A program made the position numbers and the translations under genes. Positions 53,614 to 55,203 of a DNA stretch of 64,000 nucleotides are shown here, piece by piece. The stretch comes from Eledone cirrhosa (lineage: Eukaryota), in the NCBI GenBank assembly GCA_964016885.1, contig OZ024746.1, forward strand, positions 53,754,001 to 53,818,000, given 5' to 3'. The notes below the pieces were generated by a model. That model saw only the letters and a list, made by a program, of their open reading frames with translations, ran no database searches and had not been told where the DNA came from. Numbering within the stretch: position 1 is the first letter of the stretch; each line of letters begins with the position of its first letter.

Positions 53614-55203
53614 ATAAAAGTAGCGAAACAAACGGTTATTAAGCAATTTTCTAAATAAATTAAAAAATGATTAAATAATCACCTGTTCAGATGCTGTTAC
53701 CGACGGTTTCATCATTCCGAAAGATTGGAAATCCAACGAATTTCCAATGGAAAGAAATGAATCTTCAGACAGCCCTATTCCCACGCTATAAGGTATAGCA
53801 AGTAAATATTATGCTCCCTGCCCAACGCATGCGGTCAAGCCGTTAAAGTGACACACACGCAAATCAGGTCGCTGATAAAAGCTGGATATTATAAACATGT
53901 CGAATCGCCACTAAAATTAGCGGCATTATTCAACGTTTTGTTCTCTACGTAAGGAGAATAAATTATAGAAGTGGATGGATACTTCAACAGGTACAATGTA
54001 CTTGTAGAAATATTCAAGTTGTTTATAATACATGTGGTTCAATGGCACTAATTCGAGATACCAGAACAATATAAAAGTAGCGAAACAAACGGTTATTAAG
54101 CAATTTTCTAAATAAATTAAAAAATGATTAAATAATCACCTGTTCAGATGCTGTTACCGACGGTTTCATCATTCCGAAAGATTGGAAATCCAACGAATTT
54201 CCAATGGAAAGAAATGAATCTTCAGACAGCCCTATTCCCACGCTATAAGGTATAGCAAGTAAATATTATGCTCCCTGCCCAACGCATGCGGTCAAGCCGT
54301 TAAAGTGACACACACGCAAATCAGGTCGCTGATAAAAGCTGGATATTATAAACATGTCGAATCGCCACTAAAATTAGCGGCATTATTCAACGTTTTGTTC
54401 TCTACGTAAGGAGAATAAATTATAGAAGTGGATGGATACTTCAACAGGTACAATGTACTTGTAGAAATATTCAAGTTGTTTATAATACATGTGGTTCAAT
54501 GGCACTAATTCGAGATACCAGAACAATATAAAAGTAGCGAAACAAACGGTTATTAAGCAATTTTCTAAATAAATTAAAAAATGATTAAATAATCACCTGT
54601 TCAGATGCTGTTACCGACGGTTTCATCATTCCGAAAGATTGTTCTGGTATCTCGAATTAGTGCCATTGAACCACATGTATTATAAACAACTTGAATATTT
54701 CTACAAGTACATTGTACCTGTTGAAGTATCCATCCACTTCTATAATTTATTCTCCTTACGTAGAGAACAAAACGTTGAATAATGCCGCTAATTTTAGTGG
54801 CGATTCGACATGTTTATAATATCCAGCTTTTATCAGCGACCTGATTTGCGTGTGTGTCACTTTAACGGCTTGACCGCATGCGTTGGGCAGGGAGCATAAT
54901 ATTTACTTGCTATACCTTATAGCGTGGGAATAGGGCTGTCTGAAGATTCATTTCTTTCCATTGGAAATTCGTTGGATTTCCAATCTTTCGGAATGATGAA
55001 ACCGTCGGTAACAGCATCTGAACAGGTGATTATTTAATCATTTTTTAATTTATTTAGAAAATTGCTTAATAACCGTTTGTTTCGCTACTTTTATATTGTT
55101 CTGGTATCTCGAATTAGTGCCATTGAACCACATGTATTATAAACAACTTGAATATTTCTACAAGTACATTGTACCTGTTGAAGTATCCATCCACTTCTAT
55201 AAT
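53614..55203. mobile_element. 457-bp hammerhead tandem array (about 2.25 monomers on -, then about 1.2 monomers on +) in (TA)n, retrozyme-like
   Basis: aaaagtagcgaaac occurs at 53616, 54073 and 54530, with an inversion at ~54640. The copies look identical by eye. Confidence 0.93.
54935..55015 (+). ncRNA. Type I hammerhead of the 457-bp monomer (minus-strand copies at 53693-53773 and 54150-54230)
   Basis: gctgt-CTGAAGA-ttcatt...ttggaaat..atttccaa...aatgat-GAAA-ccg(t)cgg-TA-acagc. Confidence 0.87.

Follow-up and report, generated by a model that had tools for sequence, protein, structure and literature searches.

An inverted tandem array of a hammerhead retrozyme in Eledone cirrhosa, probably copied from one RNA monomer primed on both target strands

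The window analysed here, a stretch of 64,000 nucleotides from Eledone cirrhosa, contains a tandem array of a 457-nt unit organised in two arms, both of which point outward on the ribozyme strand. Arm 1 (53612..54641, minus strand, which is its ribozyme strand) is 1030 nt long and comprises 2.25 head-to-tail copies whose units are 100% identical. Arm 2 (54638..55203, plus strand) adds 566 nt, or 1.24 inverted copies that match the unit of arm 1 exactly. The 5' ends of the arms are joined at 54638..54641, with a 4-nt overlap at the flip, so that the layout described in an earlier sequence-only reading, about 2.25 monomers followed by a strand flip and about 1.2 more, holds to the nucleotide counts given here. 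The 3' end of arm 1 is a fixed end, site A (53612..53626, minus strand; unit position 83-86), and that of arm 2 is another, site B (55192..55203, plus strand; unit position ~191). Both are fused to (TA)n and are the putative first and second starts of reverse transcription, respectively. As also noted earlier, (TA)n lies on both sides: the left target (53586..53616) is preceded by (CA)n at 53479-53586, and the right target spans 55198..55234. Target-site duplications are not distinguishable inside such runs. The unit has a GC content of 36%, and the longest stop-free frame on its circular form is 69 aa, which agrees with the earlier statement that there is no ORF; the RT and GIY-YIG ORF of an autonomous Penelope-like element is absent from the unit and at the loci fetched. 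The array is likely a non-coding repeat with hammerheads that inserted into a (TA)n run in the recent past.

Three whole type I hammerheads, each with its core and three stems, lie in the array, as expected from the earlier claim of one intact hammerhead per full monomer. Two are on the minus strand, at 53693..53773 (predicted cut between 53698 and 53697) and 54150..54230 (predicted cut between 54155 and 54154), and one is on the plus strand at 54935..55015; the third forward unit holds the 3' half of a hammerhead only. The plus-strand copy has a 5-bp stem I, CUGAAGA, a long stem II with a U.U at its base and an 11-bp extension, GAAA, a palindromic stem III and a GUA cut triplet. In Rfam nothing matched at the gathering score, nor did any hammerhead family appear at E<=10, and the ribozyme is accordingly assigned from its motif (full core and three stems) and from covariation in stem II; Rfam matches to miRNA families were rejected, as they reflect the inverted repeat only. 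Five of the eight stem II pairs changed on both sides across subfamilies. Among 17 copies of ~72 to 100% identity, compensatory changes affected both sides of 6/27 pairs, and 0/500 shuffles did as well, in an alignment whose rows were picked by an exact core match, so that core constancy is built in, and whose related rows inflate the count. Relative to shuffles, folding was far stronger on the ribozyme strand (z=-5.6) than on the opposite strand (-2.2). The sequence-only reading went too far in holding that stem III cannot close in a monomer: folding predicts that A-U, C-G and C-G pairs can form around a GUC triloop, in an unstable hairpin of +0.4 kcal/mol, against -11.3 kcal/mol for the dimer duplex, and with near-zero probability in the isolated motif. 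On these predictions the ribozyme probably depends on a dimer, the energetically favoured form, for cleavage. Dimeric cleavage is established for hammerheads with a short palindromic stem III, according to the accessible text of PMC4209133. A further hammerhead-like motif in the window, at ~55545-55615 on the plus strand, has a CUGAUGA core and a short palindromic stem III, and lies in an older relic between TA runs.

A search of the species' own genome (~3.0 Gb) for further copies, which the sequence-only reading had proposed, found about 90 dispersed young loci. Near-identical copies were taken at the best 38 scored of 1641 candidates, 36 of which were fetched and joined by the window; an exact junction motif then gave 79 A-type ends, from which 50 new loci were fetched. 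The 90 loci analysed are the first 37, these 50 and three further young loci, and the sampling is biased in that the first 37 were chosen by whole units and the later 50 by their A end. They lie on many contigs, are 95-100% identical to the window unit and hold arrays with a median length of 1.6 units; 21/90 have at least three units, and the largest has 28.3. The exact ribozyme core has 808 genome matches, among them older subfamilies whose units measure 467 to about 480 nt, and a GUC-cleaving sister family accounts for 197 further matches. One older sister-family array of 15 hits, with irregular spacing, lies at G000 C3:162363903-162373960. The 457-nt head-to-tail joint is present in contigs from three of four public runs, head-to-tail joints also occur in raw DNA reads, and near-identical units were found at low depth in public runs labelled as four organisms.

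The possibility raised at the outset, that other copies are always attached to a Penelope ORF, finds no example: none of the 90 young and about 70 older loci fetched has such an ORF joined to the unit, and none was seen in the 1.5-kb flanks, to the extent that these were covered, of 30 old-subfamily loci and of 20 of the 197 sister-family matches. Since no fetched copy is joined to a Penelope ORF, the unit is not a plain pLTR. Two candidates were dismissed along the way. A locus at C1:92.31M, which resembled a pLTR-ORF-pLTR element, proved to be an unrelated Penelope copy with a retrozyme inserted separately on each side, and a 1256-nt public contig considered as a lead to a helper continues into (TA)n and not into an ORF. 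The family combines a type I hammerhead, low GC, tandem units several hundred bp long, no coding capacity and dispersal through the genome. Its DNA thus shows every feature of the class at that level and supports its assignment to the non-LTR retrozymes, in line with the earlier reading of hammerhead-bearing, tandem non-coding units.

The arms of these arrays end in a rule-bound manner. In total, 144 arm 3' ends fall at one of two places, A (84) and B (60), at unit positions 83-86 and ~191 counted from the predicted ribozyme cut, and 144/145 arm 3' ends are followed by a TA run. The unit contains six TATA words, of which two are used as ends; the other four are never used, which indicates that A and B are chosen sites and not just microhomology. 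Inverted insertions were found 56 times, 52 of them classifiable, and 51/52 pair an A end with a B end; the first 37 loci by themselves gave 17/18 (p=7e-5). The single exception, the only A/A inverted copy (L035, G000 C3:54559537-54561441), has 81 nt of its flank mirrored, which suggests that it folded back at a later time or was misassembled. The pairing rule is kept in the intermediate subfamilies and in an old one (~72% identical), where it holds in 10/10 classifiable pairs out of 14, so that rule-bound ends extend across subfamilies that are 72-96% identical. The 5' arm ends are scattered round the unit with no pile-up at the predicted cut site; they are mildly enriched at positions 5-30 (19 against 9.5 expected), which is one of eight bins. 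An inverted arm, a tail on one end, internal fixed ends and a microsatellite target together form the insertion signature of Penelope, and this family shows all of them. From the sequences we infer one start site per target strand. The sequence-only reading had explained the inversion by a template or strand switch; with A/B pairing in 51/52, priming of both target strands at two sites explains it better.

Variants between units provide a second line of evidence. They were counted over the 90 loci with exclusion of arms below 94% identity, of 12-14 nt at arm ends and of columns near indels or clustered differences. There were 24 distinct variants present in all units of a locus, 92 in one unit and two in a subset. 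The all-unit variants cover both arms in 21 cases and are confined to one arm in none; 17/24 occur at one locus only, and the seven that recur elsewhere are lineage markers and not proof of a template peculiar to each insertion. The single-unit variants represent 105 events, or 0.13% per base, and 12/92 recur in two or three loci, with no pair of loci sharing more than one. In the window, three SNPs are present in 4/4, 3/3 and 3/3 units, and a 23-mer over one of them occurs three times in the genome, always inside the window. The longest insertion, of 28 units (19 plus 9 inverted; L071 and L072, G000 C1:156425694-156438640), bears two private SNPs, present in 29/29 and 28/28 copies, together with a change found in 6/29 copies scattered over both arms. 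Such scatter is expected if one damaged or modified base is read at each turn, and gene conversion may be an alternative. The junction at the predicted cut site was crossed 240 times, with 0 indels and four substitutions within 6 nt; 115/144 arms cross that site and only two end within 4 nt of it. A circle, that is, one covalently continuous monomer, explains the private variants, the scattered change and the seamless junctions at once, and the sequences support one template per insertion, a likely circular RNA monomer. Of the rolling-circle interpretation in the sequence-only reading, the single, likely circular template is favoured by the all-unit SNPs and seamless junctions, while the non-integer unit numbers, offered there as its basis, prove nothing by themselves.

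The direction of these changes might also carry information on the template. On the ribozyme strand, A>G and C>T prevail by 16 to 4 among all-unit variants and are in the minority, 19 to 34, among single-unit variants (Fisher p=0.001 in a post hoc test); the additional loci contribute only two A>G and one T>C. The lean points to passage through RNA of ribozyme polarity, as judged from the DNA, either by editing or by selection tolerant of G.U pairs. Editing by ADAR in particular is not established, as the neighbour context is unremarkable and selection tolerant of G.U would give an equal lean.

We also compared the unit with two coding Penelope-like families of the genome, each with its own pair of ends. 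The first (f1, with a protein of 713 aa and a median of 98.6% between copies) has its ends at pLTR positions 345 and 433, and its head-to-head pairs were mixed in 8/8 cases among 30 loci read by eye. In the second (f2; 93%), the two end sites are separated by about 67 nt, and 30 loci gave at least nine mixed pairs along with one possible exception. The first has RWR, DKT-like and CxCX5C motifs as described for the Hydra clade, and by this description of its sequence fits a Hydra type; it was recognised by neither Pfam nor PDB, and its Atlas clusters are HTH_animal/GIY-YIG/RVT_1. The likeness of the unit to these two families did not exceed that of shuffles (100/200 and 21/200 were as high), short end words being all they have in common. 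The helper is likely a Penelope-like enzyme acting in trans, neither of the two coding families compared being sequence kin of the unit. Copies of f2 at L200:640-1900 and L056:7440-9046 have a compact hammerhead, two fixed ends and an end word with a ~9-nt match to site B. In the window, a 5'-truncated copy of the abundant f1 type lies at 49140-50261 on the plus strand, with inverted pLTR pieces at ~48713-49370; it is unrelated to the 457-nt unit, and its family has a non-canonical ribozyme-like core, CAGAAGA, and keeps the two-end rule. Fold-back or inverted repeats at 50447-50875 and 52052-52722 include 236-nt arms and a 77-nt palindrome, which surrounds a TA run and is built from two f1 ends. 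A SINE-like sequence at 52903-53175, folded back with 74-nt arms, presumably resembles octopus SINE tails, and SINE-like flanks would fit an octopod host.

We propose, with a probability of about 0.7 for the whole scheme, that a Penelope-like enzyme supplied in trans cuts both target strands and copies one likely circular RNA monomer from both ends. Arrays would be transcribed, neighbouring hammerheads would cleave the transcripts, probably as dimers, into monomers, and these would be ligated into circles. The enzyme would then cut both strands of a (TA)n target, and a single circle would be primed by one target end at site A and by the other at site B. Synthesis of each cDNA would continue past the sealed junction over a length that varies from 0.1 to 19 units, and end joining, needing hardly any overlap or none, would unite the two 5' ends. 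The accessible part of PMC11167929 reports that a Penelope-like protein in vitro cuts both strands, extends both and begins copying at two sites inside the RNA, and the two-site A/B ends match this behaviour. The same part of that source reports that ribozyme cleavage is dispensable in vitro, that ribozyme mutants were still inserted and that unprocessed RNA was the main template. This dispensability of cleavage, and the finding of no sequence-related coding partner among the loci fetched and the two families compared, count against the proposal.

The in vitro results also favour, as does the expectation of equally seamless junctions, a scheme in which two-site priming takes place on a linear transcript, long and uncleaved, from a donor array whose units are uniform, with ribozyme and circle as bystanders. 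Lineage-wide variants (233, 436 and 172) exist, as this scheme would have it. However, its donors would have to carry each private variant in all units and match or exceed the daughter arm in length (19 units), and none such was found among the 90 loci, nor genome-wide for the tested SNP of the window; single-unit variants of donors should moreover pass on in blocks, and no two loci share more than one. We therefore regard it as unlikely, though worth keeping in mind. The preprint 10.64898/2026.07.22.740005, in its accessible text, favours the birth of satellites, in which short insertions expand at the DNA level by unequal crossing-over or slippage. Neighbouring units do share a change in a few places (188 in two adjacent units of L056, units 17-18 of the long array and 2/7 in L038), but expansion should leave subset variants, and there are only two against 105 single-unit events; no variant is restricted to one arm, the 6/29 change is scattered over both orientations and A/B pairing goes unexplained, which makes this origin quite improbable.

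An origin from a single priming event, by rolling or jumping on a monomer followed by fold-back on its own cDNA, or by jumps between linear monomer ends, appears a shade less probable again. It too predicts one sequence variant in both arms, and self-priming has been proposed for Penelope inversions (PMC3846280, in the part available). Fold-back gives no reason for the other fixed site at the second end, yet this is seen in 51/52, and 0 single-unit variants are mirrored between arms; end-to-end jumps should scar the junction, where 0 indels were found in 240. That the arrays are artefacts of assembly or of fold-back in long reads is very improbable. The flip at the window locus is known from the assembly sequence and the flanks of L035 are mirrored, but the arrays have unique flanks on both sides and a flip point that differs from locus to locus, their rule-bound ends are retained in subfamilies that are 72-96% identical, and the head-to-tail joint recurs in contigs from three of four public runs and in raw DNA reads. 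Copying of one circle from both target strands thus remains the reading we prefer.

Circle-templated tandem cDNA has been proposed for retrozyme and Penelope tandems (PMC4209133, PMC7229834 and 10.64898/2026.07.22.740005, in their accessible text), local DNA-level amplification is favoured in the discussion of the last of these, and the formation of tandem and inverted Penelope structures is called unresolved in the accessible text of PMC8557442. Our literature search, which covered the main text of openly accessible papers, found no uniform variants per insertion, no A/B pairing and no cephalopod retrozymes; supplements may show retrozymes that are inverted or have fixed ends. The class is known, and these copies carry unusually clear evidence on how its tandems form. 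That an enzyme rolls round one circle in reverse transcription, with priming from both target strands, has been proposed in print, though the search found no demonstration of it; the variants, junctions and pairing observed in the DNA fit this model. It would be tempting to go further and view the arrays as a genomic record of rolling-circle copying by a Penelope enzyme, in which a single circle was traversed as many as 28 times, on both strands of the break and with one dedicated start per strand, and in which changes made at the RNA level (by A-to-I editing or as structure-filtered variants) and one base misread again and again were printed at every turn; we give this even odds. If true, the rule of one site per strand would explain the inverted repeats and the one-sided tail of Penelope elements generally. 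The young family yields countable predictions, namely uniform private SNPs, seamless junctions and A/B pairing, and its 457-nt unit is short and defined enough to be tested in vitro. Technical interest would also attach to a reverse transcriptase able to write a small circle, turn after turn, into a microsatellite of choice.

The proposed scheme has relatives in several known systems. In twin priming of L1, both target ends prime on one RNA and produce tail-out arms with a microhomology joint, the first start being the poly(A) end and the second variable, whereas the present unit has two putative internal starts, both fixed, and arms that may be longer than a whole unit. The metazoan non-LTR retrozymes described in the accessible text of PMC7229834 and 10.64898/2026.07.22.740005 are likewise dispersed, tandem and non-coding, with a type I hammerhead, GC <45%, a structured ribozyme strand and co-occurring Penelope-like elements; the length of 457 nt falls inside the 51-972 bp range of the latter and slightly over the 170-400 nt of the former. 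RNA circles are shown for those retrozymes and are putative for the present unit; its long stem II and 5-bp stem I are features of Penelope-type ribozymes, and the inversion of its multi-unit arms, its pair of fixed ends and its insertion at (TA)n are not described in those portions. Like MRC1 and other non-autonomous Chlamys elements, as far as PMC8557442 is accessible, it is non-autonomous, of Penelope type and inserted in multicopy head-to-tail form, but the Chlamys elements have a helper-like 3' end and mostly no canonical hammerheads. The accessible text of PMC8557442 also reports that Hydra-clade Penelope-like elements target (TA)n, and that a Penelope tail is carried on one end only, a point shared with the available part of PMC3846280. 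The Hydra clade (PMC8557442) and Poseidon PAc (PMC11167929), as described in those same parts, share with the unit head-to-head inverted arms, an optional one-end tail, insertion at (TA)n, starts that are internal and lie downstream of the hammerhead, and extension of both strands; the unit differs in having no ORF, a tail of about 105 nt compared with 30-40 and arms of up to 19 units.
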